40,168 bases of DNA from a virus (Duplodnaviria > Heunggongvirae > Uroviricota > Caudoviricetes). Location: IMG/VR virus record IMGVR_UViG_3300029305_011675; one strand, given 5' to 3'. Under the pieces are notes generated by a model that was not told the origin of the DNA, did not search any database, and worked only from the letters and a program-made list of their open reading frames with translations. Made by a program: the position numbers and the translations under genes. The stretch's first letter is position 1. Each line of letters opens with the position of its first letter. This document shows positions 6,911 through 40,168 of this stretch, piece by piece.

Positions 6911-6916
6911 TTAATA

Positions 6917-7723: not shown

Positions 7724-7728
7724 CTACA

Positions 7729-9246: not shown

Positions 9247-9281
9247 TTTAGTATCCTCTTTCTCTCGTTTTTCTTAAATAT

Positions 9282-9310
9282 ATTATACCACAAAACCACA
9301 TCAATGTCAA
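9282..9310 (-). promoter_or_regulatory. sigmaA promoter TTGACA-17-TATAAT
   Basis: Minus strand ttgaca ttgatgtggttttgtgg tataat. Confidence 0.8.
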
Positions 9311-9345
9311 CACAAAACACATTCTTATAACATAATATTTTACCG

Positions 9346-9374
9346 TTGACATAGAACTTGATATGTGGTATAAT
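9346..9374 (+). promoter_or_regulatory. sigmaA promoter TTGACA-17-TATAAT
   Basis: ttgaca tagaacttgatatgtgg tataat; divergent from the promoter at 9282-9310. Confidence 0.8.
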
Positions 9375-9407
9375 AGAGATAACGAAAAAGCGAAGGGAAG
9401 TGATTTT

Positions 9408-9986
9408 ATCAGTCACTCAAAAAAGAAAATCTCTTACAGAATAGCAGATTTCCCAGATATTGACCCAAACCAAACATATAGAGAAGAGTTTCTTAAGAAA
9501 GAAGGATATACTCTTGTTGCAAACTACAGTGACCTCGGTATTCAATCGCATCCCAGAGATGTAACCAAAACATTTGGTGTACCGATAAATGTCATAGTTA
9601 CAAAGTATAATTACAAGGCAATAAGAAAGTATTTTGATTGTCACGGTCAGTTGAAATTTCACGGAGAAGAAGATGATTATGCTATTTTCTCCGATAACGA
9701 CAAAACAATCAAAGTCCCAATTAACGCAATTTGTAATTTTTATGAACAGTCTGTTAGAGAATTTTTTGTGTTTTCAGAAAAAGAAATTGCATCTCGTCGT
9801 GTAGGCAAAAATACAATTAATTATTTAGAAAGCAGTTTCAAAAAAGAGCGACAATTCGATACAAATAATTACTCATATACTTTTCTTTCATCAAATCAAA
9901 TCGCTGTTTTGGAAGAAAAAGACAAAACTCTTGACCTTATGAGTTATTATTCAGAAGAAGACCCAAAACTATATATATCATATTAA
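9408..9986 (+). CDS. Hypothetical protein, probable non-canonical ATC start
   Basis: The ORF-track ATG (9363) lies inside the promoter spacer. RBS-like AAGGGAAGTGA precedes an in-frame ATC at 9408. Confidence 0.55.
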   Translation: MSHSKKKISYRIADFPDIDPNQTYREEFLKKEGYTLVANYSDLGIQSHPRDVTKTFGVPINVIVTKYNYKAIRKYFDCHGQLKFHGEEDDYAIFSDNDKTIKVPINAICNFYEQSVREFFVFSEKEIASRRVGKNTINYLESSFKKERQFDTNNYSYTFLSSNQIAVLEEKDKTLDLMSYYSEEDPKLYISY

Positions 9987-10015
9987 AAAAGACGGCATCA
10001 AACGATGCCGTCTTT
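9985..10015. terminator. Bidirectional hairpin terminator
   Basis: aaagacggcatc / gatgccgtcttt. Confidence 0.75.
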
Positions 10016-10234
10016 CTGTATAGGTGTGTTCCTACTCACACCCACAATTGTATTTTGGTTCGAATCCAACCTCTGTTTAATAGTAGATTTCCAAAGCACA
10101 ATTTTTGTATCGTTACTATATCACACATTATCACTATTGTCAAGCCTTTTTTACAAAAACAAATTTTAATTTTATTGACAATAAAACGAATGCTATCCAT
10201 AATATATTCAATATGAATGAAAGGATGATTACTT

Positions 10235-11650: not shown

Positions 11651-11710
11651 TTTTTACAATCAGCCCTCCACCCCTCCCCATAACCCATTTCAACATTGTT
11701 CAAGAATCAC

Positions 11711-11745
11711 AAATTGCCCGAACATTCTGTTCGGGCAATTCTTTT
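11711..11745. terminator. Bidirectional hairpin terminator
   Basis: aattgcccgaac / gttcgggcaatt. Confidence 0.75.
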
Positions 11746-11762
11746 ATATCTCCATTAACTTT

Positions 11763-13349
11763 CTATTCAACACCTGACACTCCCAGTATAGTTTTACTAT
11801 AAGGCACATCGAGTATATGTAAATCAATCTCCAAACCTAAAATCTCCAAAATAAGTTCATCGAATTTTCTTCGATACTCAATAGGAAACTTTACATTTTC
11901 CTGATATTCCCCAGCATTCATCTTTTTAACGATATATTTTGTTTCATCTGCAATTATCTCATCAACCAATTCTTTCATTTTCTGATACTGTTCGTCAGAA
12001 ATAACATCTATAAAAGATGGCATTTTAAGAGCAAGAGAAGACGAGAAATTGATACCGCCATCGAACATTCTCCAGTACCAATAAGCGAAACTGGAATTAA
12101 GCATTGTATAGATATAGTAGAAAGACTTTTCGTCTTTGGCATATATAGTATCTCGCATTGCTCGTTTCATAGGATAAGTAACTCCGCAGGTAAAGTACCT
12201 GCAGGCGTGTGGCATATACACCACCCACCCCTCCCCATCTTGCCCTGTAAAAGAAGACTTTTTCACAGTACACTCTGCAAGAGTAGAATTAGACTTACTA
12301 ACCCATAAATCATACAAACATTCCAAATCCTTTATATGCTTACAATAGATAGGATTACTACCATCAATAATCTGTTTCTTATCCGATAATAAACCATATA
12401 AGAAGTCCCTATTAAGCAAACCTTCTCTTTCACTGTTATGAAACCGAATAAGTTGAGAAGTACGGAAACCCTTATCACCCTCATTATTAACAACTGTAAT
12501 AGTAGTTCTTACAGAGTTTCTATTACTGGACGATAAAGTACCTATTTTATTACCGCAAAAGATATTACCAGGGACATTATCAAAAGAGAAGAAATAACCA
12601 GAATAGTCGTTAAGGAAATACCTCATTTTAGAGAACTTATTACCAGATAGAAAACTATAAGGTGTAATAAGCACGGATGCTTTTGAATAGCGAATAATCT
12701 TCTCCATAAAAGCACCGTATAACTCCCTACATTGCTTTGCAATATCCGTTAAGGTGAAATCACAATTGTTCACATCAATCTTATAATAAGGTGGATTAGA
12801 AATTACCTTGCAATTAGAAGGCAATGCAGTTTTGTCATCCAAGAAATTTCCACAATAACACTTTATATTATCAAAGACTTCTCGACCAAATAAAATGGCG
12901 ATTTTGTGACGGCAAATAAGAAGTGCAAGTTCATCATTGTCATACAAATAAACATTACCGTTCAATAAAATATCTCTTGCATTATCTATTCTGCTTAATA
13001 CGGAAATAATAAGGTTGCCAGTACCGCAGGCAACATCGCCAATATTCTCACCTTTTAACTCATTAAAGAAATCTGCCATAACATTTGCTACATCGGAAGG
13101 AGTATAGTAGATGCCTGCTTCCTGCTTACTCTTTTTATTAACAAAGGCAAGTCCTAACTCATAAAGCATTCCGAAGTTATCTATATGAATAATAGATGTA
13201 TTATCGGGTTTCTTGTTGATATTCTCTTTTATAATAGCATACCATACTTCTTTGATACCGTAAGTGGTAATATCGTTATAGTATTGTTCTTCGGTATAGT
13301 TATCGAAGTTAATCTTTGGTGTGTTTTGGTATATAAAGAGATTTATCAT
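11763..13349 (-). CDS. N6-adenine DNA methyltransferase (solitary)
   Basis: GIYYTP, motif I DVACGTGN, motif IV SNPPY, LITPYS. Confidence 0.8.
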   Translation of the reverse strand: MINLFIYQNTPKINFDNYTEEQYYNDITTYGIKEVWYAIIKENINKKPDNTSIIHIDNFGMLYELGLAFVNKKSKQEAGIYYTPSDVANVMADFFNELKGENIGDVACGTGNLIISVLSRIDNARDILLNGNVYLYDNDELALLICRHKIAILFGREVFDNIKCYCGNFLDDKTALPSNCKVISNPPYYKIDVNNCDFTLTDIAKQCRELYGAFMEKIIRYSKASVLITPYSFLSGNKFSKMRYFLNDYSGYFFSFDNVPGNIFCGNKIGTLSSSNRNSVRTTITVVNNEGDKGFRTSQLIRFHNSEREGLLNRDFLYGLLSDKKQIIDGSNPIYCKHIKDLECLYDLWVSKSNSTLAECTVKKSSFTGQDGEGWVVYMPHACRYFTCGVTYPMKRAMRDTIYAKDEKSFYYIYTMLNSSFAYWYWRMFDGGINFSSSLALKMPSFIDVISDEQYQKMKELVDEIIADETKYIVKKMNAGEYQENVKFPIEYRRKFDELILEILGLEIDLHILDVPYSKTILGVSGVE

Positions 13350-13394
13350 GGAATGTTTCGCCTGCCTTTATTTTTGTGGTTGTTACATAGAAAT

Positions 13395-13423
13395 ATTATA
13401 GTATATTTTGGTAGATTTGTCAA
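13395..13423 (-). promoter_or_regulatory. sigmaA promoter TTGACA-17-TATAAT
   Basis: Minus strand ttgaca aatctaccaaaatatac tataat. Confidence 0.75.
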
Positions 13424-13800
13424 TTGGCATAGGGATTATTGTATATTAGATGGTTGTTGGAATCGTAAACAGGAATAGTTTGGGAGGGAGGACTGGTTTA
13501 GGAGGCATGTTTGCTTTTTTTAAGGGGTCGTGATGGAAGGAAAGGAGGATGGACAAAAAGAAACCCAAAGGCGAATAGTGCCTTTGGGTGTTATTTTTCG
13601 GAAGATTAAAAGTGAGGAAGGCTGGGAATGTTTTTTGAATGGGTTAAACCTTTCGAGAGGGTTGTGAAATGATAATGTTTATTTTTTTGAGTGGGTTATG
13701 AGTGGTGGTTGGGTGGGTGGAAAAATGTTGAAATATTTTTTGATATTAGCGAAAAAATGATTTACAATTTTTTCATCAATTAAAGAAGGGGGTCTTTTTT

Positions 13801-14829
13801 ATGACTAAAAGACTTTTGTCATTGCTTTTAGCAATTATTTTAGTTTTCTCCGTTACTGGTTGTGCAACAAGTAAAAACGACACAAAACCAAACGAAGAAA
13901 CAACAAACACAGAGACATCTACAGAACCTTCTGACACGACACCAGATGACACACAAACAGACACAACTGTTACAGAACCATCTGATACCACAACAGAAGA
14001 AGATGCCACAACACCAACAGAATCAACCACAGAACAAGAGACCAAACCAAGTCAAGATACAAATAAGGAAACAGAAAACACTACAGAAAAAGAACAAGAA
14101 AAAGTAAATAACAACAAAACAGAAACAGAAAAAGAAAATACGACTTCCAGTTCTGACCGTGTTGTAGTAAAGGATGAAGTTGAAGTGAAGCAATCTAATG
14201 TTGGTCTTCAAGTATTCGATAGTAAGATGATTAGTTATTTGGAACAAAAATACGGTGTCAAAGAAAATATGTTTGCTTCTCCTCTTTCTCTAAAATATAT
14301 GCTTACTATGGCAGCAATTGGTTCTAATGGAGAAACTCAAAAAGAACTTTTACAGGTTTTGGGTTTCAAATCTATTAAAGAGTGTGAAGATTGGGCAAAA
14401 TCTTACCTCGAAATGACGAAACCACTCGATAATCTCATTACAGAAACTCCTCCGCAGGAAGATGGTATTATCGCATCACCTGGTATTATTGGTGGTTCGG
14501 ACAAAACAACTCTCAATATTGCAAACTCCGTATGGCACAATGCAAATAAGGGTGGTAAAATCAAAACAACCTTTATAAATGCTATAAACAAAGCATGCGG
14601 TGCAGAAGTATTCAATGTAAACGGAAATAAATTAAAGAACGAAATCAATACTTGGATTGAAAAAGAAACAAATGGAATGATTAAGAATATGGTTGATGAT
14701 TCCGTTGCCAATAAAAACACAGTTTTGATAAATGCTCTGTATTTAAAAGCACAATGGACTTCGAAATTCAGCAAAGGTCTTACACACAAAGACAATTTCA
14801 AATGCACCAAAGAATCGGCGGGGTCATAA
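13801..14829 (+). pseudogene. Serpin-domain lipoprotein, C-terminally truncated
   Basis: Lipobox VTG|C and T/E-rich linker. Serpin motifs SPLSLKYML, IANSVW, INTWIEKETNGMI, VLINALYLKAQW. Stops shortly after and has no reactive-centre loop. Confidence 0.8.
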
Positions 14830-15008
14830 AAACGTTGTGGAATATCTGCCCATAAATATTGAGACTCTATCATATCGAAGTTGTAAACACTATTGCAGTC
14901 TCTATATTTGTACAAATATCGTGGGTACTTATCTATTTGAATGGTTATTGTTTTCTCATCACTAATCCCAATTATTTGGTCGAGTTTTTGTTTGAAATAT
15001 TTATCCAT
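14800..15008 (-). pseudogene. 5' fragment of a DUF2971-like gene
   Basis: GGAGG RBS. YLYKYR...LWAD...FYDPAD motif, after which the reading frame runs into antisense serpin sequence. Confidence 0.6.
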
Positions 15009-15020
15009 AAAACCCTCCTA

Positions 15021-17120
15021 TTAAGCAAATAACTTCTTGATTCTCTCTGATACGGAATTCTCCAATGTTGCAAACCTTGCCTCAAGTTCTTCACTTGCAG
15101 TGGGTTGCTTATACTGATAGAAATATTTGGTGAATGGGATTTCTGCACCAACACGAATCACAGGATTCTTCTTGGTCATATCTTCTTCCCAGAACCACTT
15201 CGCATCAGGAACATGAGGAAGAACTTCTCTTGCCATATAATTTTCAATATCTTCATCCCACTTAACGATTTCTGTATCTTTTGTTGTCTTATCATAAATA
15301 ATTTCTCCCTTGTTTTTGCCCTTGGGTTCTCTCTGAATTTCGGCTTCTTTATCCATCACAGATAAGCCATCGGCAATCTTTGCAATAAGTTTAGCATCAA
15401 TGCCAGTATCAGCAAGAATATCATTCAAAACAGGCATGAAATCATTTACAGAAAGGTGTTTAATTGTACTAATGGCATTATTTAATGCTTCGAGAACGGC
15501 ATCATAGAGTGGTTTGTTCTTTCTAAAACCATCCAACTTTGTTTGTTCCTTGCCACTAATAGAAACACCCTTGTTTTCTAATTCAGCAACCTTTGCTTCA
15601 TCGTAAAGACCATTCAATGCACCAGATTGAAGCATATTAGCAATACTTTTTTCTGTGATGGAATAACTTCTCTGAAGCGGTTGCATTACTGCATATTCCT
15701 TATAAATAAACTCTGTATTGTCGTAAATCTTAACGACATCGGTATTGACAAAATCAGCATACAACTTTGTAATCATTGCTCTATCCTCTGGCAAGAATTC
15801 GTTTTTCTTATTGCCCAGAGGTTTTCTTAATTTATGGCAAATGGCAGATGCATCAATTAACTGAATCTTGCCTTTCCTTTCAGGTCTCTTGTTCTTGGAA
15901 AGTAACCAAATATAAGTTGCGATGCATGTATTATAAAAGGAATCGGTAGGTAACTGAATAATTGCTTCAATCAAATCGTTTTCAAGCAACCATCTACGAA
16001 TTTGAGATTCGCCAGATGCTGTGCCACCAGTAAACAATGGAGAACCATTGGAAATAATAGCAGCACGACCAACATTATCATCCATCTTATGAACTGCCGA
16101 CTGCATAAAGAGCAACTGTGAGTCGCCACCACCAGGAAGACCTGCTCCCCAACGACCAACCATACCCTTTGCATGTTCTGTCTTAACTGCATCTTCCTGA
16201 CCTGCCTTGGCACTTTCTCCAGACCAAGGTGTGCCAAAAGGAGGATTTTCCAACAAGAATCTCATCTTGGTTTCAGGGAAACAATCATTCTTCAAAGTAT
16301 CTGTATGACGGAAGTTCTCTGCATTCTGACCTTTGATAAGCATTTCAGCAAGACCAACAGCATAAGAAGGACCCATAAATTCCTGACCAAACAAACGAAC
16401 ATCGGCAGTAGGATTGAAGTGCTTCAAATATGTATAAGCAGTAGACAACATACCGCCAGTACCACATGCTTGGTCACAAACGGTCAAAATTTTCTTATCA
16501 TCAAAGATATCATCGCAACCTTCTGCAATCAAGAGAGATACACACAGTTTTACTATGTCACGTCCAGTGTAGAACTGACCTGCATCAACATTCTGATAAA
16601 AACGACCAATCAGATTTTCAAAGATATAACCCATCTTAATGCTATCGTAAGTAGAAGGATTAAGGTCAAGTTCGGAGAATGCCTTTGCAACAGAATACAA
16701 ACAACCGTCCTTGTCCATCTTTTCGATGTGTTTCTTCATTTCTAACTCATTTAAGATGTCCTGAACATTATTGGAGAATCCAGCAATATATGCATTAAAG
16801 TTGGAGGCGATATGGTCAGCATCATTGCAAAGTTCTTTCAAATCAAATTCACTGGTATTATAAAACTGATATCCAGATATACGGCACATTGCCTTGTAAG
16901 GATACAGTGGATTTTCCTTAAATTTATTAACTACTGCTTGCTTTGTATCAGCAAGAGTGCATTCAAAACGGCGAATGATAACCATAGGGATGATTACATC
17001 ACCATACTTGTCGGGCATATAAGAACCCCTTAATTTGTTTGCGATAGACCAAATAAAGTTAGCCTCCGCAGTTACATCTACGGGAGTTTCGTCCCAAATC
17101 ATATTTTTAATATCAGTCAT
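15021..17120 (-). CDS. hsdM: Type I restriction-modification methyltransferase subunit M
   Basis: ANFIWSIANKLRG N-terminus, GQFYT, DQACGTGGML, NPPFG, NGSPLFTG. No hsdS or hsdR in the window. Confidence 0.9.
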   Translation of the reverse strand: MTDIKNMIWDETPVDVTAEANFIWSIANKLRGSYMPDKYGDVIIPMVIIRRFECTLADTKQAVVNKFKENPLYPYKAMCRISGYQFYNTSEFDLKELCNDADHIASNFNAYIAGFSNNVQDILNELEMKKHIEKMDKDGCLYSVAKAFSELDLNPSTYDSIKMGYIFENLIGRFYQNVDAGQFYTGRDIVKLCVSLLIAEGCDDIFDDKKILTVCDQACGTGGMLSTAYTYLKHFNPTADVRLFGQEFMGPSYAVGLAEMLIKGQNAENFRHTDTLKNDCFPETKMRFLLENPPFGTPWSGESAKAGQEDAVKTEHAKGMVGRWGAGLPGGGDSQLLFMQSAVHKMDDNVGRAAIISNGSPLFTGGTASGESQIRRWLLENDLIEAIIQLPTDSFYNTCIATYIWLLSKNKRPERKGKIQLIDASAICHKLRKPLGNKKNEFLPEDRAMITKLYADFVNTDVVKIYDNTEFIYKEYAVMQPLQRSYSITEKSIANMLQSGALNGLYDEAKVAELENKGVSISGKEQTKLDGFRKNKPLYDAVLEALNNAISTIKHLSVNDFMPVLNDILADTGIDAKLIAKIADGLSVMDKEAEIQREPKGKNKGEIIYDKTTKDTEIVKWDEDIENYMAREVLPHVPDAKWFWEEDMTKKNPVIRVGAEIPFTKYFYQYKQPTASEELEARFATLENSVSERIKKLFA

Positions 17121-17139
17121 TTAATGCGCCTCCTAATTC

Positions 17140-17403
17140 TTATTTATCAGATGCTCTAAACATTTCTACTGCTGAAATAGCCTTATCAGTCAGCAAATAT
17201 CTTCCAATGTGTACTGTATCTTGTTCTAAATATCCATCTTCTTTTAACTGCTTGAAGATGCCATTCATTGTTACTCTACTTAAACCGAGTTCATCGGCAA
17301 CCTCTTGCTGTGTAATACGTGCGCGATTATCATTGCCTTTTACATCATAAAGGTATGCTAATGCACGAAACTTATCGTTTGTAAAATATTTCACATTTGA
17401 CAT
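17140..17403 (-). CDS. Winged helix-turn-helix DNA-binding protein
   Basis: ITQQEVADELGLSRVTMNGIFKQLKEDGYL. GGAG RBS supports ATG at 17403. Confidence 0.75.
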   Translation of the reverse strand: MSNVKYFTNDKFRALAYLYDVKGNDNRARITQQEVADELGLSRVTMNGIFKQLKEDGYLEQDTVHIGRYLLTDKAISAVEMFRASDK

Positions 17404-17408
17404 ATCAT

Positions 17409-18140
17409 TTACTCCTTCCAATTAGGATTTCTTTGTTTATAAGAATCCATCAATACTTCTTTTACTTTTTCTTTATCATCTAATGAATTCATATATAATC
17501 GGTACTTCATTGTCCAATTGTAACTATCTGGGAGCAGGTCTCCCAATTCGTGGTCATCAATAGGAGGAAGAGTATACATTTGGATTTTGTTTTTTTGCAA
17601 ATGGAACTCGCAAAAACCAATGCCGTTTGCCAACCATAAGATATAGTTAGGTGTGACTCGCAATGATGTTCCCGAAACCTTGTCAAAGATGTCTCGCTTT
17701 AACATTCGATACCAATTAACCATCTCTGGTGTTTTTTCTGCAAGCCACTCTTCTTCGGCAAGATTATTACCTTTGTTTGAACCATCACCATCAACATCTT
17801 GGATGTGTTGTGGTTTATTTTGTGTCCAAAACTTTGGTTCTGCAGTATTACTGATTCTTGCAATTGCAGTTAACATAGCAAAAGCATCTTCTGGTGTCAT
17901 GATATAAAACTCTCTGTGCTTTGAAACTCTTAATTTTGGATTTAATAAGTCAATTAGGGAATGCAATTTCTTATCTTCCAGATTACCAGCGGTTTCGTAA
18001 GTGGCATACACCTCATAATCATAAGGGAGAGCAGTACCACTCAATTGTTTTCGTCTCTCCTCAACATCCGTGGCATATCCTATCTTAACCATATTTGTCA
18101 ATGCTGGATTGGTCATTATGTAAATATATCCTTTCGCCAT
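17409..18140 (-). CDS. GIY-YIG (T5orf172-type) domain protein with a DUF5655-like C-terminus
   Basis: GYIYIMTNP...VKIGY...VEERRKQL...E...H...REFY. C-terminal family call is tentative. Confidence 0.75.
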   Translation of the reverse strand: MAKGYIYIMTNPALTNMVKIGYATDVEERRKQLSGTALPYDYEVYATYETAGNLEDKKLHSLIDLLNPKLRVSKHREFYIMTPEDAFAMLTAIARISNTAEPKFWTQNKPQHIQDVDGDGSNKGNNLAEEEWLAEKTPEMVNWYRMLKRDIFDKVSGTSLRVTPNYILWLANGIGFCEFHLQKNKIQMYTLPPIDDHELGDLLPDSYNWTMKYRLYMNSLDDKEKVKEVLMDSYKQRNPNWKE

Positions 18141-18261
18141 ATTGGTAACTCCTCTATATGTTTGTTAATTATTTTTTATATTAAATATAGAATATGTATA
18201 ATTACAATATTAAAATAATTTAACATTTTTTCAAAAATGTCAAGTAAAAATGATAAAAAAA

Positions 18262-18302
18262 ATAATAGGCATCCTGCAATTTTATGCAAGATGCCTATTT
18301 TT
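18262..18302. terminator. Hairpin terminator
   Basis: aataggcatc / gatgcctatt. Confidence 0.7.
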
Positions 18303-18335
18303 ATATTTATTTTTTTCATCGATAATGTTATTATG

Positions 18336-18417
18336 ATTTCATATCGACTTGGACTTTCAACTTTTTGAATTTTTTATAATTTCATATCGACTTGTATCAT
18401 TTCATATCGACTTGGAC
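18336..18417. repeat. Three direct copies of ATTTCATATCGACTTG
   Basis: Copies start at 18336, 18379 and 18399. The last copy is the 3' end of the oxidoreductase gene. Confidence 0.85.
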
Positions 18418-19800
18418 ATTATCATCAGCCGTTTTTTCGCCAATTACACGACTTACATATACACCTTCTGCACTGGCCTGACCTAAAGAGTGGGTAGTGC
18501 CACTGCAATCGCCGATAAAGTAGAGTCCCTTCTTCTCGCTCTCAAAATTATTATCAACATTGACAACGGAATTATAGAACTTAACTTCTGCACCATATAG
18601 CAGATTGTCGTAGTTTGCCGTACCAGGAGCAATCTTATCAAGAGCATAAATCATCTCGATAATAGTGTCCAAGGTCATCTTCGGCATACACAGGGCAAGG
18701 TTGCCAGGTTCTGCAGACAGAGTGGGGCGAGTAAAAGACTTTTCAAGTCTGTCAGCATTGGTTCGCTTATTTGCAAGCAAATCACCAAATCGCTGAACCA
18801 TAACACCACCAGCAAGCATATTTACCATGCTTGCAACTGCTTCCCCATAAGCATTACTATCCTTAAAAGGTTCTGTGAACTTATGAGTGACAAGCAGAGC
18901 GAAGTTCGTATTCTTGGTATGCAGAGACTTATCTTCATAACTATGCCCGTTAACAGTCACGATACCGTTGGTGTTCTCGGCAACTATTTCGCCGTGAGGA
19001 TTCATACAGAAAGTACGACAAGTACAACCAGTCTTGGAACTTCTGTACATAATCTTACTCTCATAGACCTCGTCGGTAATATGTTCCCAAATTTCAGCAG
19101 GACACTCAAAGCGAATACCGATATCTACACGGTTATTGCTACCAGCAATACCGAAACTCTCACACAACTGGGAAGTCCACTTTGAACCGCTACGACCAGT
19201 TGCAACAATGACATTGTTCGCATAGACGCCCAACTTTTCGCCAGCACCGATGTACCAAATATCCTCAAACTGCTTTACAGTATCAACAGAAGCATTGTAG
19301 AAAATATCAATCTTATCAGACAGATATTCGACAATGTTGCCGATAATATTGTAATTCTTTTCAGTACCAAGATGGCGCACATTCGCATCAAGCAGATGCA
19401 AATCGTGCTTCAATGCCTCTCTCTTCAATGCAGTACTTGCAGAAGGATATAGGGTAGAACCATCGCCACCCATTTCCATATTGATAGCATCAACATACTC
19501 CATCAACTCGATAGCGGTCTCACGACCAACATACTCGAAAAGATTTCCACCAAAATCATTGGTGATATTATACTTACCATCGGAAAAAGCACCTGCACCA
19601 CCGATACCAGTAGTAATAGAACAGTTCTTGCATCCGATGCAATTCTTAATCTTCTTGCCGTCAATCGGGCACTTTCTCTTATTCAGTTCGTTTCCCTTTT
19701 CGAGAATACAAACCTTCATATTGGGGTACTTCTTCGTGAACTCGTAGGCAGCAAACAGACCGCCTGCACCACCACCAATAATCGCTACATCATACTTCAT
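18397..19800 (-). CDS. FAD/NAD(P)-dependent oxidoreductase (uncharacterized FAD-dependent dehydrogenase family)
   Basis: IIGGGAGG, GIGGAGAFSDGK, ATGRSG, TFCMNPHG, NGHS, GAEVKFY, IGDCSG. Confidence 0.85.
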   Translation of the reverse strand: MKYDVAIIGGGAGGLFAAYEFTKKYPNMKVCILEKGNELNKRKCPIDGKKIKNCIGCKNCSITTGIGGAGAFSDGKYNITNDFGGNLFEYVGRETAIELMEYVDAINMEMGGDGSTLYPSASTALKREALKHDLHLLDANVRHLGTEKNYNIIGNIVEYLSDKIDIFYNASVDTVKQFEDIWYIGAGEKLGVYANNVIVATGRSGSKWTSQLCESFGIAGSNNRVDIGIRFECPAEIWEHITDEVYESKIMYRSSKTGCTCRTFCMNPHGEIVAENTNGIVTVNGHSYEDKSLHTKNTNFALLVTHKFTEPFKDSNAYGEAVASMVNMLAGGVMVQRFGDLLANKRTNADRLEKSFTRPTLSAEPGNLALCMPKMTLDTIIEMIYALDKIAPGTANYDNLLYGAEVKFYNSVVNVDNNFESEKKGLYFIGDCSGTTHSLGQASAEGVYVSRVIGEKTADDNVQVDMK

Positions 19801-19948
19801 AAAATTTTAATCTCCTTTATCTTTTGTGTGCTCGGTTTTACCTCCATTATTGTATCACAAAATAGTGCCTATGTCAACTACTTTTTGTATTGATTTTGTG
19901 AAAAAAATATGTTATACTGTAGAAAATTTTTATGGAGGTGCTTTTGAA

Positions 19949-20566
19949 ATGCTCACTTCTAAAAAGGGTTTTACCCTTATCGAACTATTAGTAGTTATCG
20001 GCATTCTTGCTGTTTTAGCATTCGTAACTGTACCTTCTGTTGCTGGAATTATAGAAAAGGCAAGAGCATCAAGCGATATGCAAGAGATTAGAGCAATGGA
20101 AATCGCAATAAATCACTACGCTATTGATGGTCGCTCTTATTTGTCTGCGACTTATGATATGCCAAAAGTTGAAGCAGTATTAAGACAGGTAACAGATGGA
20201 GAAACGAATTATGAAGAACTAATCAATAACAGATGTAATGCGACATTTGATAAAGACTTTTTACCAATAACTGCAAAAAGTTTTTCAGCAGTCGTATTTA
20301 ATTACTGTCAAGTTGAAAACAAAAAATTAACAACACCATCTCAATTTGGTTTTGATTACTATTACAATGTAGATACAGGTCTCGTTGTAAAAGCAGAAAA
20401 AGGCATTACAGACAGAAATGTATTAAAAGAAATTTTAATGAGTACAAGAGATGAAGATGATTTAACGGGAATGTGGATTAATATTACTTCATCTGTTGAA
20501 AACGGACTAACAAATGAAATGCCAACAGAAAACTATATACTATATACAAGTAACAATGGAGGGTAA
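19949..20566 (+). CDS. Type IV prepilin-like protein (pilin module only)
   Basis: GGAGGTG RBS; KKG|FTLIELLVVIGILAVLA; promoter ttgatt-17-tatact upstream. Confidence 0.8.
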   Translation: MLTSKKGFTLIELLVVIGILAVLAFVTVPSVAGIIEKARASSDMQEIRAMEIAINHYAIDGRSYLSATYDMPKVEAVLRQVTDGETNYEELINNRCNATFDKDFLPITAKSFSAVVFNYCQVENKKLTTPSQFGFDYYYNVDTGLVVKAEKGITDRNVLKEILMSTRDEDDLTGMWINITSSVENGLTNEMPTENYILYTSNNGG

Positions 20567-24872: not shown

Positions 24873-25090
24873 ATGACATCCTCTACCGCTTCAAGCGGTA
24901 GTTTCCATTACGAACAACCCTAACGGTCTAACCACGGGTTGTTCATTTTTTATAGAAACCACCATTAAAGTGGAATTACAAGGTTTCTGCTTCTTCCATC
25001 ACTGCCAATTGAGCATAACTCAACTGGTCTTACACGATGTCCACAGACGTAAGTTCCCGTGTGTCCCACGGTACTGTTTATATAATTAGG
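24873..25090 (-). ncRNA. Predicted TnpB omega-RNA (reRNA) scaffold
   Basis: About 210 nt between the tnpB stop and the IS right end, as established for IS200/IS605 tnpB loci. Boundaries are inferred. Confidence 0.55.
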
Positions 25091-26243
25091 CAGTGAGCAA
25101 TCTCTTGCCTTCGTTCAATATGTTGACAGAAGCATTAAAATCTCTATCGTGGGCAGTATTGCAATTGGGACATATCCAATTTCTAACGGAGAGATTTTTT
25201 ACTTCTGCATTTTTGTATCCACAGCAACTGCAGATTTGTGAACTTGGGTAGTAGGTATCAACCTGTATGAAAGTTTTACCATACCATTCAGATTTATATT
25301 TTAATTTAGATATAAATGAATACCAACCAAGTTCGCCAATGTTTTTATGCAATTCCTTACTGTAAGGCAAAGAATTGTCCATTAGCATTTTCTTAACATT
25401 AAGATGCTCTACCGCAATTAAGTCATATTCTCTTACTATATCAAGAGATAACTTATGAAGAAAATCTTCTCTACAGTTCGCATCTTTTCCACAGAATTTT
25501 GCTAATTTTAGTTTTGCTTTCTCTCTATTTTTTGAACCCTTTTGCTTTTTAGAGAGTTGCCGATAGAGTCTTCTCTTTTTCTTTTCGTTTTGCTTGATAA
25601 AATTGGGTTTTTCGATAACTGTTCCATCGGAAAATGTAGTGAAATGACTAATTCCGATATCGATACCTACTTCTTTGCCAGTTTTATCAAACTGTTCAAT
25701 TCTATCTGCACGACGAATAGTAAGAGTTACATAAACTTTACCAGATTTCGTTTTTTTAACAGTCGCAGATTGAATAGTGCCGTTAGGTATCGCTTGATTA
25801 GGTTTGGTTCTCACCCAACCAAATTTTCCCAACTTAATTTTGTTACCATCAAAACGAATGCCATTTGTAACATTCATTATACGAAAACTCTGGTTACTGT
25901 GTTTGCTGCGGTATTTTGGTAAACCGCATTTCTTTTGATAAAAGTGTTGCATTGTGGTCCAATAGTCCTGCAACGCTTGTTGTAAACAAGTAGCATCTGC
26001 TTCTTTAAGAAATGGGTTTACTTTCTTTAAATTTGGTAATTCTTTTGCCAAATTTACAAAATTATACTGTTGCAAGTTATTCTTGTACCTATCGGTATTA
26101 AAATCAATTGCCCAGTTATATATAAAACGAGAGTGACCAAAATATTTATTGAGAAGTTCTAATTTTGAAACGGGTATGTCTATACTGCATTTAATATTAA
26201 CAGTATTCGTTCCATTGCTTTTGAAAGAACCTTTCTTAAACAT
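25086..26243 (-). CDS. tnpB: RNA-guided endonuclease TnpB
   Basis: HSRFIYNWA HTH, RuvC GIDIG / AVEHL / HDRDFNA, zinc ribbon CSCCG..CPNC. Own promoter ttgaca-17-tataat. Confidence 0.9.
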   Translation of the reverse strand: MFKKGSFKSNGTNTVNIKCSIDIPVSKLELLNKYFGHSRFIYNWAIDFNTDRYKNNLQQYNFVNLAKELPNLKKVNPFLKEADATCLQQALQDYWTTMQHFYQKKCGLPKYRSKHSNQSFRIMNVTNGIRFDGNKIKLGKFGWVRTKPNQAIPNGTIQSATVKKTKSGKVYVTLTIRRADRIEQFDKTGKEVGIDIGISHFTTFSDGTVIEKPNFIKQNEKKKRRLYRQLSKKQKGSKNREKAKLKLAKFCGKDANCREDFLHKLSLDIVREYDLIAVEHLNVKKMLMDNSLPYSKELHKNIGELGWYSFISKLKYKSEWYGKTFIQVDTYYPSSQICSCCGYKNAEVKNLSVRNWICPNCNTAHDRDFNASVNILNEGKRLLTA

Positions 26244-26434
26244 TTTTATCACTCCTTTCATAAGTTTTATATGTATAAATTATACTTAAAAAGTAAGAAA
26301 ATGTCAATAGAATCCAATAAACAAACAGCACCGCTACCGCTCTACTGTTTGTTTAAGATATGCGGTCTTGCACTTCAAGTGCGACCGCTGTGCCTGCATC
26401 CACCGTCAAAGACGGATGTTTTGACACTTAAATA

Positions 26435-31724: not shown

Positions 31725-31753
31725 TTGACATTGAAAGTGATTTATGGTATAAT
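31725..31753 (+). promoter_or_regulatory. sigmaA promoter TTGACA-17-TATAAT
   Basis: ttgaca ttgaaagtgatttatgg tataat; drives the radical SAM operon. Confidence 0.8.
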
Positions 31754-31781
31754 AATAGTAACAAATAAAGGAGGAAATACT

Positions 31782-33131
31782 ATGATTAAGAAGTATTTTG
31801 ATAAGAAAAATCGCTTTGGAGAAATGTTTAATACCGTAAATGGATTTTACTTCCGTACAGGTGTCCTTGATGCAAATGGCAAGGATACTGGAGTAGACCC
31901 CTTTATGAGAGACTTCCCTGCACTAATTGACATCGGTGTAATGGGACACTGTGTACATGGTGCATCTGGTCTTTGTGCAAAGTCTGGTGTTCAGTGTTAC
32001 CAGAACGGTCTTAAGACTTACGAACCCAATATGTCTCTCGATAACTTTAAGAAAATTGTTGACGAGTGCAAGGATAAGTGCTTCCAGTTTGCACTTGGTG
32101 GTCGTGGAGATGTTGACCAGCACGAGAACTTTGAAGAAATTCTTCGTTATTGTGCGGAAAATCACATCGTTCCCAACTTCACCACATCTGGTCTTGGTAT
32201 GACCAAAGAAATCGCACAGACTTGCAAGACTTACTGTGGTGCAGTTGCCGTAAGTATGTATTCTCGTCTCGATAATATCGTTCCCGATATTGCTCGCAGA
32301 AAGTTGACTGATGGTAGCAAGAGAGTTTATCGTTCTGTTGACGATATTCCTGTTCTGTTTACCTTCAACAATGAAAATAAGGAATGTTATTGGGATGCTC
32401 CCAACTACATCATCAACGGTGAGACATACGAGTGGGATGAACTTCATCACATTGTATTCTCCGATGAAGAGCAGGAGTACGAATATTTCCGAATTTTCAA
32501 CGAAAAGAACTCTATCGCAAAGAACGACATCCCCAATTACACTATCAATGCAGTTAATATGCTTATTGATGCTGGTGTAACTACCAACATTCACTATGTA
32601 ATTGGCAACAACACCATTGATGAGGCAATCGCAAGATTGAAGTACAATGGTTTTCCGACTGGAATCAATGCAGTTATTTTCCTGCTCCACAAACCTGTTG
32701 GTCTTGGCAAGGAAGATAATGTCCTTGACATCAATGATGTCAGAGTAAAGGAATTTTTCAACCTTATCGATACTGGAAAGTTCCCTTTCCAGATTGGTTT
32801 TGATAGTTGCACAGTTCCTGGCATTATCAACTGCACAAAGAACATCGCAGGCGAAAGCATTGACAGTTGTGAGGGCGGTCGCTTCTCTATGTATATCACT
32901 TCCGATATGAAAGCACTTCCTTGCTCTTTTGACAATCAGGACATGAAGTGGGCAGTTGATATTTCCAACGGGCTCATCGAAGATGCTTGGAATAGCGACA
33001 GTTTCAATGATTTTAGAAGTCACTTTTTGAACTCTTGTCCTAATTGCCCGAACAGAACATCTTGTTACGGTGGTTGCCCGATTCGCAGACAGACCGTTTT
33101 GTGTAATCGTCAGACAAAAGAATTGAATTAA
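31782..33131 (+). CDS. Radical SAM/SPASM-domain protein with an expanded cysteine motif
   Basis: CVHGASGLCAKSGVQC, ALGGRGD, FTTSG, VAVS. SPASM-like CEGGRFSMYI..LPCSF..CPNC...CYGGC. Confidence 0.85.
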   Translation: MIKKYFDKKNRFGEMFNTVNGFYFRTGVLDANGKDTGVDPFMRDFPALIDIGVMGHCVHGASGLCAKSGVQCYQNGLKTYEPNMSLDNFKKIVDECKDKCFQFALGGRGDVDQHENFEEILRYCAENHIVPNFTTSGLGMTKEIAQTCKTYCGAVAVSMYSRLDNIVPDIARRKLTDGSKRVYRSVDDIPVLFTFNNENKECYWDAPNYIINGETYEWDELHHIVFSDEEQEYEYFRIFNEKNSIAKNDIPNYTINAVNMLIDAGVTTNIHYVIGNNTIDEAIARLKYNGFPTGINAVIFLLHKPVGLGKEDNVLDINDVRVKEFFNLIDTGKFPFQIGFDSCTVPGIINCTKNIAGESIDSCEGGRFSMYITSDMKALPCSFDNQDMKWAVDISNGLIEDAWNSDSFNDFRSHFLNSCPNCPNRTSCYGGCPIRRQTVLCNRQTKELN

Positions 33132-33567: not shown

Positions 33568-34272
33568 GTGAAAATTAGATATGGTTTTGTAACAAACAGT
33601 TCGAGTTCTTCTTTCATTATCAAAAAGAAGGACAATTTCAATTCGGTCGAAGATGTTTATCAAACCGTAAAACAACTGTATGTTGAATTCAAAAATGTAA
33701 TTGACAATGCAGTAAATGCTTGCAAAGATAATCCCAAATATACTATCGTAAGAGATAAGGACGACAACAATAAGGTTGTTCACATTACTCTCACGAAAGA
33801 GAAAGGTTATGATTGGTTGACCGAAACCGATGCTTTTGAAGCAGAATTCGGAATTGGTCTTCTCGATTATTTGGGTTATAACCTTACTTGGATGGAGACT
33901 TGCCCCACCTATCAAGACTTCTTAAAGAAGTTTGAAGGTGAATATGGTCCTTTTAGAATTCTCGATTTCTCAAAACCAGAAGATAGAGATTCTGATGAGG
34001 AAGAAAGTCTTATGAGCATCCTTTGCTGGTATATGCCTTGCTATGACGACAACAGCAGAAATTGCAACACTTGTAGGTACACCAAGTATTGCGACTTTAA
34101 TAAGAAGTGTCCTGACCTAATCGATAAGGTTAAAGATGCAAACGGTGATATCGATGTTGTGTTTGAAGTCTTTGGACAGTTCTGTGTTGCAAGTGAGTGC
34201 GGTTATATTCCCGATTATGTTGTGCAGAGGTTGTCTGGTTTGTCAACTTTTGCCTGCAATCACATGGGTTAA
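33568..34272 (+). CDS. GFVTNSSSSSF-motif protein with a cysteine cluster
   Basis: GTG start after AGGAGG. MKIRYGFVTNSSSSSF; CNTCRYTKYCDFNKKC; ends in CNHMG. Confidence 0.75.
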   Translation: MKIRYGFVTNSSSSSFIIKKKDNFNSVEDVYQTVKQLYVEFKNVIDNAVNACKDNPKYTIVRDKDDNNKVVHITLTKEKGYDWLTETDAFEAEFGIGLLDYLGYNLTWMETCPTYQDFLKKFEGEYGPFRILDFSKPEDRDSDEEESLMSILCWYMPCYDDNSRNCNTCRYTKYCDFNKKCPDLIDKVKDANGDIDVVFEVFGQFCVASECGYIPDYVVQRLSGLSTFACNHMG

Positions 34273-34290: not shown

Positions 34291-34689
34291 ATGAAATTTA
34301 GAAAAGGTTTTGTTACCAACAGTTCGAGTTCATCTTTTATCGTTGCTGTAAAGGACGACGGTTCTGAAACTCTAAATGCTTTTATGAAGGCATTTGTGGA
34401 TTCGGAAGATTACAATGAAACTCGCAAGGGTCATTCGTATAAGACAAAGGAAGAACTCGACAAGTATTATGTTGAAAATTTCAAGTCTTCTCGTTGTAAG
34501 ACTCTTGAAGAAATTCTCGAAGACGATGAATATCTCGAAGAACAGTACAACAAGGAACTGGAGTGCATCGAAAAAGGCTTCGTCATTCTCACAAAGGATA
34601 TCGGATATGGCGACGATGGTTTGACCTCGTTTGTTTCCATTTTCGCTGAATCTCTTGGAGAAAATGCAATCTTGTTCGATACTGACTAA
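34291..34689 (+). CDS. GFVTNSSSSSF-motif protein
   Basis: AAGGAG RBS; MKFRKGFVTNSSSSSF; terminator at 34697-34731. Confidence 0.75.
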   Translation: MKFRKGFVTNSSSSSFIVAVKDDGSETLNAFMKAFVDSEDYNETRKGHSYKTKEELDKYYVENFKSSRCKTLEEILEDDEYLEEQYNKELECIEKGFVILTKDIGYGDDGLTSFVSIFAESLGENAILFDTD

Positions 34690-35714: not shown

Positions 35715-35743
35715 TTGACAAAACGAAAAATTTATGTTATAAT
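35715..35743 (+). promoter_or_regulatory. sigmaA promoter TTGACA-17-TATAAT
   Basis: ttgaca aaacgaaaaatttatgt tataat. Confidence 0.8.
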
Positions 35744-35767
35744 TTAGAATAAAGGACGGTGATTATT

Positions 35768-38215
35768 TTGAAGCAATATAATGCAGATAGCATTACCGTA
35801 TTGGAAGGTTTAGACCCTGTACGAAAAAGACCAGGTATGTATATCGGTTCTACATCAGTAAAAGGATTAAACCATCTAATATTTGAAATTGTGGATAACT
35901 CCGTTGATGAACACCTTTCTGGTTATTGCGACAAAATCATTGTGAGCCTGAACAAAGACGGTTCAGCAACAATTGAGGACAATGGTCGTGGTATTCCAGT
36001 AGATATTCATGCGAAAGGTTATCCAGCAGAAAGAATTATCTTTACCACACTCCATGCTGGCGGTAAGTTTGATAATTCAAACTACAAAACATCTGGTGGT
36101 TTGCACGGTGTTGGTTCTTCTGTTGTTAATGCACTATCTTCAAAGATGATAGTAACTATCAAAAAAGATGGTTTTGTGCATTATGACGAATATGCTTTTG
36201 GCAAACCCGCTTTTCCATTAAAGAAAAACGAACCACTCCCCACAAAAGGAAAAACGAAGGAAACTGGAACAACAGTTACTTTTTACCCAGATGAAACAAT
36301 TTTTGATACTACAAAATTCAAGGCATCATCTATTGAACAAAGATTGCACGAAACAGCATTCCTAAATCCAAACTTAACAATCGTTTTTAGAAATGATAGA
36401 GATGATTTACCAGAAAAGGTATTTCACGAAGAAGATGGATTAAAAGGTTTTGTCTTATCGTTAACAAAAGATAAAGAAAAGAGCACACCCGTTGCATTTA
36501 TCAACGGTGAAAAAGATGGAATTATTTTTGAGTGTGCCTTTCAATATGTTAATGAATTTGGAGACAATCTAATTGGTTTTTGTAACAACATCAACACTGT
36601 TGAAGGCGGAACACATATTGATGGTTTCAAAGCAGGATTTGCCCGTATTCTCAATCAATATGCGAGAGATATTGGTTCTCTCAAGGAAAAAGACCCGAAC
36701 TTCACAGGCAATGACACAAGAAATGGTATGGTTTGTGTTCTTTCTATCAAACACCCAGCACCTCGTTTCGAAGGTCAAACAAAAACAAAGTTAGACAATA
36801 CGGATGCTAAAAACATAATTCAATCCATATTAAACACAGAACTGCAGGTTTTCTTCGATAGAAATGTTGATGTATTGAAGACAATTATTGCAAGTGCTGA
36901 AAAATCGGCAAAATTACGCCGAGAAGAAGAAAAAATCAAAACAAATATTGCCGATAAGAAATTCTCATTTGAAGGCAACGGAAAACTTTCGAGACAAGAA
37001 TCCAATGATGCCTCAAAATGCGAAATCTTTATCGTTGAGGGTGAGAGAAAGATTTGCCCTTATCCTTCTTTCCTGCTATCACAGGGGTAAATACAATGTA
37101 TTTGCTAACGAGGAAGACTGACCGTTATCCTTGAATGTCAAAACAAGGTTAGGCGAAGTTAATCTCGTGGAAGTTGTAAAATACAACTCTGTATCGACTA
37201 TCTCCGTTGTTGGAGAGTACTGGTGTTATTGATACACACTGGGAAATGTTGGACACGATGATGACCTGACAAGTCGGAGTGAAGAAATAGTCAGTTCCAT
37301 AAGAAATTGTGGTTGTAACGAAATCTGCAGGCGGTTCAGCAAAAACCGCAAGAAACAGAAAATATCAAGCAATCCTCCCAATTCGAGGTAAAATTCTTAA
37401 TGTTGAAAGACAATCGATTGGAAAAATTTTAGACAATGCCGAAATTAAGGCAATGATAAATGCTTTCGGTTGTGGTTTTTCAACTGGTCTTGGTAATGAT
37501 TTTGATATTTCAAAACTCAATTATGATAAAATCATAATCATGGCTGACGCGGATATTGACGGCGGGCACATCAGAACACTTTTATTAACATTTTTTTATA
37601 GATTTATGCCAGAACTTATTTATGCTGGTAAAGTTTATAATGCGATGCCTCCGCTATATCGAGCAAAAACATCAAAGTCTGAAGTTTATATGTATTCCGA
37701 CAAAGAATTAGAAGAATACAGAAAAACACATAAGAATTTTGATATACAACGGTACAAAGGGTACGAGTAGTCTGGCCCTTATCTACTTTTCCTCTATCAG
37801 AGGGGTCACACAATGTGTGGCTAACGAGGGATATTCCTACTACAACATATAGTTGTGAATGAGGATGGTCTCGTGTGAAATAAGATTTTTAATCTTTAAT
37901 CATGTATCGACTATCTCCGTTGTTGGAGAGTACAACTGTTATTGATACACAGTTGGAAAAGGTAGAGTCTATGAAGGCAGTTAGTTACCAGCCAGAGACA
38001 AGAAATAGTCAGCACCGATAGTAATATCGGATAAAAGCGTAGGCGAAATGGATGCAAAACAATTGTGGGAAACCACGATGAATCCAGAAACAAGAAAACT
38101 CAAAAAAGTTGAAATTGAAGATGCTATCGAAGCAAATAATATCACTTCTATTCTTATGGGCAATGATGTGCCAGCAAGAAGAGAATTTATTATGTCGAGC
38201 GATAACTTTTCATAA
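35768..38215 (+). CDS. gyrB: Type IIA topoisomerase B subunit (GyrB/ParE), three exons: 35768-37042, 37321-37762, 38040-38215; about 630 aa spliced
   Basis: [38 protein letters not shown]. Splicing restores [13 protein letters not shown] and RYKG|LGEM, and keeps MADADIDG. gyrB versus parE is not resolved. Confidence 0.9.
37043..37320 (+). ncRNA. Group I intron 1 (278 nt, no ORF)
   Basis: 5' exon ends in U (GAGGGU pairs with IGS GCCCUU); P10 AGAUUU pairs with exon AAAUCU; R-like gtatcgactat; S-like gaagaaatagtc; terminal G. Confidence 0.9.
37763..38039 (+). ncRNA. Group I intron 2 (277 nt, no ORF)
   Basis: 5' exon AAGGGU pairs with IGS GCCCUU; P10 GUCUG pairs with exon UAGGC; same R and S elements; terminal G; splicing restores KGLGEM. 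Confidence 0.9.
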
Positions 38216-38976: not shown

Positions 38977-40168
38977 ATGAAATTTAATTACAAATCCCGT
39001 AAGGGTTTCACACTAATTGAACTACTTGTGGTCATTGGTATTCTTGCTGTGCTCGCAGCAATTGCCATTCCAAGTGTTGCTGGTTTGATTGACAGAGCAA
39101 ATGTTTCTGCCGACAATACCAATGCTAATGAATATACTAATGCAATCGAAAGATTCGCAAGCGAATACGAACTCTATTGTCAGGATATTGCCAGTGGTGT
39201 CATTAAAGACGAAAATGGCGATGGCAAACCAGATGGCGATTTAGATAGTGCACAAGGTAGAGTATTCAATGTAACTGGTGCTGTATCTCGTGAAGACATC
39301 ACTAATTTAGAAAGCAATGGACACTTAAATTCTAAAATTAGTAGAGATACTAAATACCCACTAAATACATATACACTTGAAGCCATTATTCAAAATTATA
39401 CAAAAACATCAAGCGCAACATTTGAACCAAAACAATCAGATTGCAGTTATTGGTACAATCCAGATTGTGGTATTGTTGTAGTTGCTGATACTAATGCCTC
39501 TATTGCACAACTTAATGATTTAGTGGTTTCTGGCAAGGATGCAAAAGGAAATGCACTTGATGATAATTATGCAAATTGGTGTAATGTAACATCTGACTCG
39601 CAAGTACCAATGGTAAAAACAATAACTTTTAGTTTTGCTGGTTATAGATTTACAGCAAAAGAAGGTCAAACTTGGGAAGAATGGTTGAATGAACATCCAG
39701 AATATCAAAGAACAACTCCAACACCAGAAATTTACTTTGACTTTATGCATGATGATGCTATAAGAATTTATACACCAAAACATACATCCGCTGATTCTTG
39801 GAGTTTAAGTGGTGCGCCAGATTCTTATTGGGTCGAAAGAACCCATGTTATAGTTGATGGAAGAGATTATCAACCAATCCATTGGTGTTGCTTTGATGCT
39901 GGTTCACAAGTTTTGATGGCAGATGGAACAACCAAGAACATTGAAGATGTTATTGTTGGTGATATGGTAATGTCACTCAATGAAACTACTGGCGAATTTG
40001 TTGCACAACCAGTAACCAATACCATTATCAAGCACAATTCTGATGACCTTGTATATGTAAATCTTTCTGATGGTACACAAATCGGAATGAGAGCATATCA
40101 TCCACTCCTCACCACAGATGGCTGGAAATCTTTGAGACCAGAAATGGTTGAGACAATTACTGATGTTG
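38977..40168 (+). CDS. Type IV prepilin-like protein with a C-terminal Hint (hedgehog/intein-like) domain, open at the window end
   Basis: Manually translated, absent from the ORF track. RKG|FTLIELLVVIGILAVLAAIAIP; from 39889 CFDAGSQVLMADGTTKNIEDVIVGDMVMS...HPLLTTDGW. Promoter ttgaca-17-tatatt at 38917-38945. Confidence 0.85.
   Translation, partial: MKFNYKSRKGFTLIELLVVIGILAVLAAIAIPSVAGLIDRANVSADNTNANEYTNAIERFASEYELYCQDIASGVIKDENGDGKPDGDLDSAQGRVFNVTGAVSREDITNLESNGHLNSKISRDTKYPLNTYTLEAIIQNYTKTSSATFEPKQSDCSYWYNPDCGIVVVADTNASIAQLNDLVVSGKDAKGNALDDNYANWCNVTSDSQVPMVKTITFSFAGYRFTAKEGQTWEEWLNEHPEYQRTTPTPEIYFDFMHDDAIRIYTPKHTSADSWSLSGAPDSYWVERTHVIVDGRDYQPIHWCCFDAGSQVLMADGTTKNIEDVIVGDMVMSLNETTGEFVAQPVTNTIIKHNSDDLVYVNLSDGTQIGMRAYHPLLTTDGWKSLRPEMVETITDV

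Follow-up and report, generated by a model that had tools for sequence, protein, structure and literature searches.

The stretch of DNA analysed here, referred to as the window, comprises 40,168 nt of viral sequence and carries a gene for a GyrB/ParE-family type IIA topoisomerase B subunit that is interrupted by two compact introns, I1 and I2. The features of this locus, all on the plus strand, are listed below, with a caret marking the intron site within a motif.

35715-35743, plus strand: putative sigma-70/sigma-A type promoter of the gyrB-like gene (12/12 consensus, extended -10; a consensus match only)
35759-37042, plus strand: exon 1, ATPase and transducer, ending at the TOPRIM Glu-Gly
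37013-37042, plus strand: upstream co-conversion tract with I1, the last 30 exon bases
37043-37320, plus strand: intron I1, group I, 278 nt, phase 0, site 428 (EG^xSA), terminal G at 37320
37321-37762, plus strand: exon 2, 442 nt, TOPRIM with the DADID motif, as far as RYKG and one base of the Leu codon
37763-38039, plus strand: intron I2, group I, 277 nt, phase 1, site 575 (YKG-L^G), terminal G at 38039
38040-38215, plus strand: exon 3, GyrB C-terminal domain and stop
Parts of I1: P10 37050-37055; internal guide sequence (IGS) 37056-37061; P3 37069-37072/37243-37246; P3.2 37086-37106; P4 37108-37112/37164-37168; P6a 37172-37188; P7 37194-37200/37288-37293; P7.1 37201-37216; P7.2 37220-37242; P9 37297-37312
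Parts of I2: P10 37770-37774; IGS 37775-37780; P3 37782-37791/37956-37966; P3.2 37805-37821; P4 37824-37828/37870-37874; P6a 37882-37896; P7 37907-37913/38006-38011; P7.1 37914-37929; P7.2 37933-37955; P9 38015-38030

Excision of 37043-37320 and 37763-38039 yields a single 633-aa GyrB/ParE-type frame, which holds the GHKL ATPase, transducer, TOPRIM and C-terminal domains. The NCBIfam GyrB model is tiled by the three exons from position 8 to 631, gyrB models outscore parE models for each of them, and a TTG at 35768 is a possible alternative start of exon 1. A preliminary description of this DNA had placed the introns in the TOPRIM EGxSA and RYKGLGEM motifs, and both motifs are indeed intact after excision, being regained as IVEG^KSAGGSAK at the I1 site and RYKG-L^GEM at the I2 site. 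The unusual K of EGKSA is also encoded by the intronless alleles of the related loci L121, L124 and L150, and the exons share 98% amino-acid identity with L121. Splicing in another register, to give EGESA or EGDA, was ruled out because it lacks the U/G ends and the empty alleles encode EGKSA. Exon skipping as a form of regulation is conceivable in principle but was set aside, as the joint of exon 1 to exon 3 runs straight into a stop codon and exon 3 offers no pairing partner to P10 of I1. A chromosomal relative with 70% identity belongs to a B–A gene pair that lies outside a dnaA/recF neighbourhood, an A subunit gene is absent from the 40,168-nt window, and querying viral contigs with a protein pattern from exon 2 returned distant genes only. 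The tetranucleotide GGGT occurs just twice in the 1.9-kb spliced gene (window 35759-38215), each time at an insertion site, and the corresponding count is zero in the close empty allele L121 and one to nine in more distant alleles; this scarcity may reflect either chance or avoidance of cryptic splice sites.

Elsewhere in the window there are three type IV pilin-like genes with an N-methyl motif (38977-40168, 10235-11650 and 19826-20566), two of which share their upstream region, and the last of which has a C-terminal Hint domain. Similar promoter-like stretches of 40 nt stand before many genes, six copies of them within 5449-19886 and others elsewhere, and their likeness suggests one strong promoter class. 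The N-terminal sequence FVTNSSSSSF is common to unrelated proteins encoded at 7729-8664, 33568-34272 and 34291-34689, near a radical SAM/SPASM gene (31725-33131). No virion gene was found among the window proteins scanned. Near-identical DNA is present in animal faecal and bovine gut sequencing runs, and one relative sits on a 495-kb contig.

The lengths of 278 and 277 nt and the boundaries first proposed for the introns hold, since a U precedes and a G ends each of them, and no other cut gives both together with an intact motif. The pairing of two RAGGGT exon ends with the same IGS is also found, GAGGGU at 37037-37042 with 37056-37061 and AAGGGU at 37757-37762 with 37775-37780, and each P10 matches its own 3′ exon, at 37050-37055 with 37321-37326 in I1 (6 bp) and at 37770-37774 with 38040-38044 in I2 (5 bp). 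An ORF is absent from both introns, in agreement with the earlier statement that neither encodes a homing endonuclease; P6a of I1 (37172-37188) marks the place of a GIY-YIG gene in its relatives.

In a search of the kind proposed at the outset as a check (cmscan), Rfam RF00028 returned nothing in the window at its curated cut-off of 50 bits, which is a library threshold and not a mechanistic feature, and below this cut-off I1 scored 21.3 bits (E 0.008) and I2 was unmatched. Because the Rfam match was weak for I1 and lacking for I2, the fold was tested by comparison of relatives. Given 16 ORF-less relatives, RNAalifold finds P1, P3.1, P3.2, P4, P5, P7, P7.1, P7.2 and P9 unaided, and 30 of the 52 pairs show compensatory changes. 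When we specified a structure that includes the P3/P7 pseudoknot, 96% of cells were paired and compensatory change was seen in 20 of 42 pairs; none of 500 shuffles reached as high, and slid controls gave 37-46%. In the same alignment P7 is 100% paired and nearly invariant, the P3 core is 84% paired and lacks compensatory change, and P7.1 and P7.2, which lie between P7 and P3, are 100% and 96% paired and covary. The P3/P7 core is accompanied by P4, P6, P8 and P9 and by the G–C guanosine-binding pair beside the P7 bulge, and there is no room for P2, as P3 begins 1-2 nt past the IGS. The label ‘IA2-like’ is used here because P7.1 and P7.2 point to the phage-type subgroup IA2 while P2 is absent, and subgroup IA2 is itself heterogeneous (PMC11878797). 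Judged by these comparisons, I1 and I2 are genuine group I introns with an IA2-like ribozyme fold, and self-splicing is predicted for both.

RNA bearing on excision comes from the gut metatranscriptome X24, which contains a 256-nt contig in which the terminal G, equivalent to 37320, is joined to the equivalent of 37045, i.e. intron base 3. The joint is absent from three DNA runs. Comparable circles are known, as the Azoarcus intron circularises between bases 2 and 3 and 5′-truncated group I circles form via the terminal G (PMC13168695). The X24 contigs include neither a circle of I2 nor an exon–exon joint, in a run that covered no exon of the gene. The contig, a single one of depth 2.5 from an allele with a different P6, is suggestive of excision and circularisation in vivo for that I1 relative, and is not proof for the copies in the window.

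A core-pattern search for these introns yielded 111 loci from IMG/VR, with 7 more from metagenomes and a further 14 from species genomes. The preliminary description had remarked that type II topoisomerase genes are not a commonly reported host of group I introns. This stands for the literature, where a search that took in few subscription journals found no report naming such a gene as a host; it does not extend to gut phages themselves, in which such introns are common, with a GyrB-like gene, nearly always interrupted, in 45 of the 111 IMG/VR loci. The interruptions in GyrB-like genes fall at about residues 117-119, 428, 445, 451, 505-509 and 575, and the remaining loci are nrdD-, primase-, dnaB-, dnaE- and polA-like genes, named by eye from their motifs. 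Sites 428 (EG^xSA) and 575 (KG-L^G) are each filled in many unrelated phages, in counts that are biased by search patterns demanding a GCCC-like guide. Among 50,697 GenBank phage records, none matched I2 at the nucleotide level.

GIY-YIG-like inserts occupy the P6 loop in 12 of 14 site-428 introns and 10 of 23 site-575 introns (near-duplicates included), with endonuclease genes in the cognate introns of L122 and L128 at site 428 and of L131, L100 and L074 at site 575. The L131 endonuclease is 44-54% identical to most site-575 endonucleases, compared with 38-42% for those of site 428. IGS and exon have changed together in 7 of 24 site-575 introns. The nearest empty alleles read GAAGGA at site 428 and AAGGAC or AAGGCT at site 575, and not RAGGGT, which in the whole sample is present in 7 of 30 empty site-428 alleles and none of 18 empty site-575 alleles.

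Introns of the same type also occur in L081, L134 and L127, immediately following the Glu-Gly (or Glu-Ser) of TOPRIM in primase-like genes, a position equivalent to gyrB site 428. The intron at L133:114-1092 is of the site-575 type and has the same guide, and lies one base upstream, past the whole Gly codon, where the exon ends in AAGGGT; it is a candidate for guide-directed sliding. A different type of group I intron occupies a DAD^ site, with a LAGLIDADG-like gene at L121:1586-2782 and ORF-less at L148:11791-12202. Between P7.2 and P3, a recurring insert of about 40-45 nt with a common motif is seen in introns at different sites in L013, L061 and L151, and at the L126 3′ end.

I1 and I2 are undoubtedly related to each other, with an alignment score of 251 against a maximum of 121.5 in 200 shuffles, and a core 16-mer present in two copies in the window where 0.2 would be expected. 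Their identity is 65% overall and very uneven, reaching 91% in P7–P7.2 and falling to 54-56% in P4–P5 and P3′–P8 and 41% in P6. The long shared blocks reported earlier do exist in both introns, and yet they are core elements of the whole family: among 97 members, in a set partly gathered using the counted motif itself, the P4 decamer occurs in 47, the J8/7 12-mer in 36 and the whole 31-nt block in 12, and these elements are found in introns of the two gyrB sites and also in one from a primase gene. No third copy was found in the window. The closest introns to each are at the same site of other genomes, with 97% identity for I1 and 99% for I2.

For the intron tree the guide was removed and inserts were trimmed, leaving 237 columns of mosaic sequences; splice junctions of relatives were assigned by guide, the site-428 intron of L070 was parsed by hand, and the long-branch rows L078, L135, L017 and L091, and later the site-451 intron of L074, were omitted from some trees. 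I1 groups with the site-428 introns of L122, L126 and L128 (100/99) and I2 with the site-575 introns of L129 and L128 (100/94). L128 holds an intron of either kind, and each of them stands in the tree next to its counterpart from the same position, which makes the two lines older than the divergence of these hosts. A tree in which I1 and I2 are constrained to be sisters costs 155 log units (AU p ~1e-62, with 4e-41 and 6e-45 in the other two versions of the data set). Wider unions are not rejected, whether of the I1 clade with the I2 clade (p 0.45) or of all site-428 with all site-575 introns (p 0.52); deep branches are poorly supported, and dnaE-, dnaB- and primase-site introns fall among both site families.

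Close alleles of the host gene were surveyed as originally advised, and empty, filled, remnant-bearing and clean-loss states were all found. At site 428, L121, L124 and run X8 are empty, L122 carries a 232-aa GIY-YIG gene, L125 keeps a remnant of about 60 nt which is a short piece of the end of the endonuclease gene, and the window and L126 show clean loss. The ribozyme of I1 is 97% identical to that of L122 while the exons are about 78% identical, and the last 30 exon bases before I1 (37013-37042) are 100% identical to the endonuclease-bearing L122, against a background of 70-80%, and only 83% identical to the empty L121, against a background of 96-100%. Downstream of I1, some of the fall in identity to L121 could be due to the intron that L121 itself carries. 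This signal of co-conversion is clear for I1 and weaker for I2; co-conversion marks homing by DNA double-strand break and is unexpected of reverse splicing (PMC2504315; PMC3984707).

I2 is 92% identical over its 3′ half to the intron of L131, which carries an endonuclease nearest to other site-575 endonucleases. Since L131 and, for I1, L122 with its 97% match both carry GIY-YIG genes, the ORF-less state of I1 and I2 is derived. I2 is also 99% identical to the L129 intron, including the same short P6, in exons that are 81-83% identical away from the site, which argues that I2 moved recently and after loss of the endonuclease, and it may have done so either by trans homing or by plain recombination. 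The search that had been advised for a trans-acting endonuclease came up empty, in that the window encodes no relative of the intron endonucleases. It does contain a free-standing T5orf172 gene of the GIY-YIG superfamily (17409-18140, minus strand), beside a type I methyltransferase and unrelated to the intron endonucleases, and a TnpB (IS605 OrfB) gene (25086-26261, minus strand); either could in principle act on the introns in trans.

The reading we prefer, with a probability of about 0.85, is that I1 and I2 are separately acquired, endonuclease-less members of two site-specific IA2-like families, which arrived by homing and then decayed. In the transcript, each intron would fold into a P3–P9 ribozyme whose IGS pairs on one side with the exon end, where a U·G marks the cut, and on the other with the first bases of the exon that follows that intron. 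Exogenous G would open the 5′ site and the exons would be joined at the terminal G, after which the free intron would circularise minus its first two bases, as seen once for the I1 relative and as may also hold for I2. At the DNA level each family would spread by double-strand-break homing, through predicted cleavage by a GIY-YIG endonuclease whose gene loops out of P6, and, to judge from co-conversion, repair would copy the intron together with flanking exon and in doing so supply the GGGT end required by the guide. Later deletion of the endonuclease gene would leave the compact intron, which is proposed to persist because it is seated in a catalytic motif of the topoisomerase. That I1 and I2 have equal guides would follow both from their targets, each of which ends in purine-A-GGGU (codons for Glu-Gly in one and Lys-Gly in the other), and from the kinship of the two families. 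Within this lineage, co-resident introns also appear to swap internal modules.

Evidence for such swaps comes from chimeric introns, which combine a guide and P10 of the resident site with P4–P5 and P8 of I1 type, at L148:12413-12684, L151:2232-2516, L153:5288-5559 and L153:4634-4911, and in L126 from 1687. At site 575, the introns of L148, L151/152 and L153 join a guide and 5′ end of I2 type to a P4–P5 that is 72-82% identical to I1 and 53-66% to I2. The 5′ half of the site-451 intron of L126 is 88% identical to its site-428 neighbour and nests in the I1 clade (99/91), and this intron recurs in run X8. As the chimeras keep the guide of the resident site, recombination of co-resident introns fits them better than guide-directed insertion.

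The preliminary description had explained the pair as one intron duplicated within the gene through recognition of a second RAGGGU site, which is read here as recent reverse splicing into the same mRNA and fixation in DNA. The shared IGS, the confinement of GGGT in the spliced gene to the two insertion sites, and a P7–P7.2 identity of 91% which is in the top 5% of 261 cross-host pairs of the two families (mean 79%) all speak for such an event, and yet the overall identity is just 65%, P4–P5 and P3′–P8 have diverged to 54-56%, and the AU test rejects the pairing of I1 and I2 in all three data-set versions. Endonuclease-bearing relatives exist at both sites, the RAGGGT target is missing from all 18 empty site-575 alleles and from the nearest empty site-428 alleles, the co-conversion around I1 would not be expected under reverse splicing (PMC2504315), and the pathway lacks direct experimental support (PMC3984707). 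Recent duplication is therefore rejected for these two copies by the tree test, and we regard it as very improbable. An older event has a much better standing: the ancestor of one site family could have reached the other site, both ends pairing with a GCCCU guide, by reverse splicing or by relaxed endonuclease cutting, with the families homing separately thereafter, a history that is compatible with the homing-and-decay explanation. The unrejected joint clades (p 0.52 and p 0.45), the homology of the endonucleases of the two families (about 33-46%) and the presence of the same guide type at other GGGU ends (L133, the primase-like L081 and L134 after the TOPRIM Glu-Gly, and the polA-like L017) agree with it. 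Failure to reject falls short of demonstration, however, the base is not settled in trees built without constraint, where dnaE-, dnaB- and primase-site introns are interspersed with the families, and equal targets explain equal guides whatever the ancestry, so that we hold this older transposition to be a serious possibility at somewhat under even odds.

Slightly less probable again, and offered tentatively, is partial homogenisation, whereby I1 and I2 arrived separately and their P7–P7.2 block was made alike by recombination while co-resident. Pairs from the same host have P7–P7.2 identities of 91% (the window), 91% (L128), 85%, 77% and 75%, compared with the cross-host mean of 79%, and the chimeric site-575 introns of L148, L151/152 and L153 and the L126 site-451 intron, with its 5′ half in the I1 clade, suggest that exchange of this kind can occur. 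Against this, P7–P7.2 is the most constrained part of the ribozyme, the 31-mer is common to 12 of 97 members including those of distant hosts, there are only five same-host pairs, and the grouping of the L148 and L153 introns with the I1 clade (99/92) is unstable once rows are added. The 91% identity of I1 and I2 in this block may be a trace of intron exchange. That the two inserts are dead, i.e. decayed elements which have broken the gene into a pseudogene, would be consistent with the weak or missing Rfam match and with the lack of spliced mRNA in X24, a run covering no exon, but is hardly credible given that the helices and splice signals are all intact, the frame is restored exactly, the exons are conserved (98% amino-acid identity to L121), a consensus promoter stands ahead of the gene and circular intron RNA is seen in an I1 relative. 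Separate acquisition by homing followed by decay remains the reading we adopt.

Other reading frames are seen in some P6 loops of this family. The site-575 intron of L128 contains in P6 a 225-aa gene (L128:3442-4116, minus strand) encoding a Phage_lysozyme2 domain (PF18013, E 3e-31) behind a hydrophobic N-terminus, found in one assembly, which by its domain content is a non-nuclease passenger where relatives have a GIY-YIG gene; a pattern search of viral contigs gave no relative of it. L126 has a third intron (site IRG^K), with a 66-aa hydrophobic ORF in P6 (L126:1853-2050), for which no usable Atlas match was obtained.

The closest well-known layout is that of the td intron of phage T4, a subgroup IA2 intron with P7.1 and P7.2, P3.1 and P3.2, and the gene for the GIY-YIG endonuclease I-TevI in the P6a loop. 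The window introns resemble td/I-TevI in having a phage-type ribozyme in a DNA-metabolism gene, the same extra helices, GIY-YIG genes in P6 of their relatives and homing with co-conversion, and differ in their topoisomerase B host gene, in the lack of a P2 between guide and P3, and in the loss of the endonuclease from the window copies. Tourasse and Kolsto (2008, PMC2504315) described TMP-IVS1 and TMP-IVS2 in prophages of the Bacillus cereus group, two IA2 introns in one gene which are 80% identical and have different guides. Here too a related pair without endonucleases lies at two sites of one phage gene, with the core more conserved than the periphery, whereas the window pair is 65% identical, shares one guide and has endonuclease-bearing kin for both members. 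Introns 2 and 3 of Twort orf142 (Landthaler and Shub 1999, summarised in PMC10136302) are a highly similar pair around a 23-nt exon, and both this gene and the SIOphi polymerase introns (PMC11878797) offer parallels for several group I introns per gene and possible exon skipping; the Twort pair differs from the window, where exon 2 has 442 nt, the two introns are unlike in P3 and P10, and a transcript lacking exon 2 would meet a stop codon at once.

Gut phages are already known to be rich in such elements, with capsid, terminase, polymerase, primase, RNA polymerase and nrdD genes as intron hosts in the Delta/Zeta crAss-like phages (PMC7886860) and the Jug phages (PMC12880540), in the latter of which splicing was shown in metatranscriptome reads (PMC12880540). 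As in the present case, core genes of these gut phages harbour numerous group I introns, some containing an endonuclease gene and others not, but no topoisomerase intron is named in either account (PMC7886860, PMC12880540). Collaborative (trans) homing of ORF-less introns has been reviewed (PMC3984707) and could explain how the ORF-less I2 moves between diverged alleles, although no free-standing partner was found in the window.

The mechanism proposed here follows the homing-and-decay cycle already described for such introns, while no publication on this host gene was met in the literature searched. As an ordinary end stage of that cycle, the pair does not strengthen the case that introns spread by reverse splicing. 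A broader generalisation, which we advance as possible and somewhat short of an even chance, is that in large gut phages and phage-like elements the genes for type II topoisomerase B form a hotspot, so far unreported, of six sites or more, occupied by one P2-less modular family in which ribozyme bodies are swapped between co-resident introns and the guide of the site is kept, ORF-less copies such as I2 move in trans, and P6 may take up non-nuclease passengers, as in L128. As gene callers cut this gene into three and the default Rfam threshold misses both introns, topoisomerase genes of large gut phages end up mis-annotated. The close alleles, which include empty, endonuclease-bearing, remnant, clean-loss, chimeric and passenger-bearing forms, make up a natural series for the study of how endonucleases are lost, how introns home in trans and how co-resident introns recombine.
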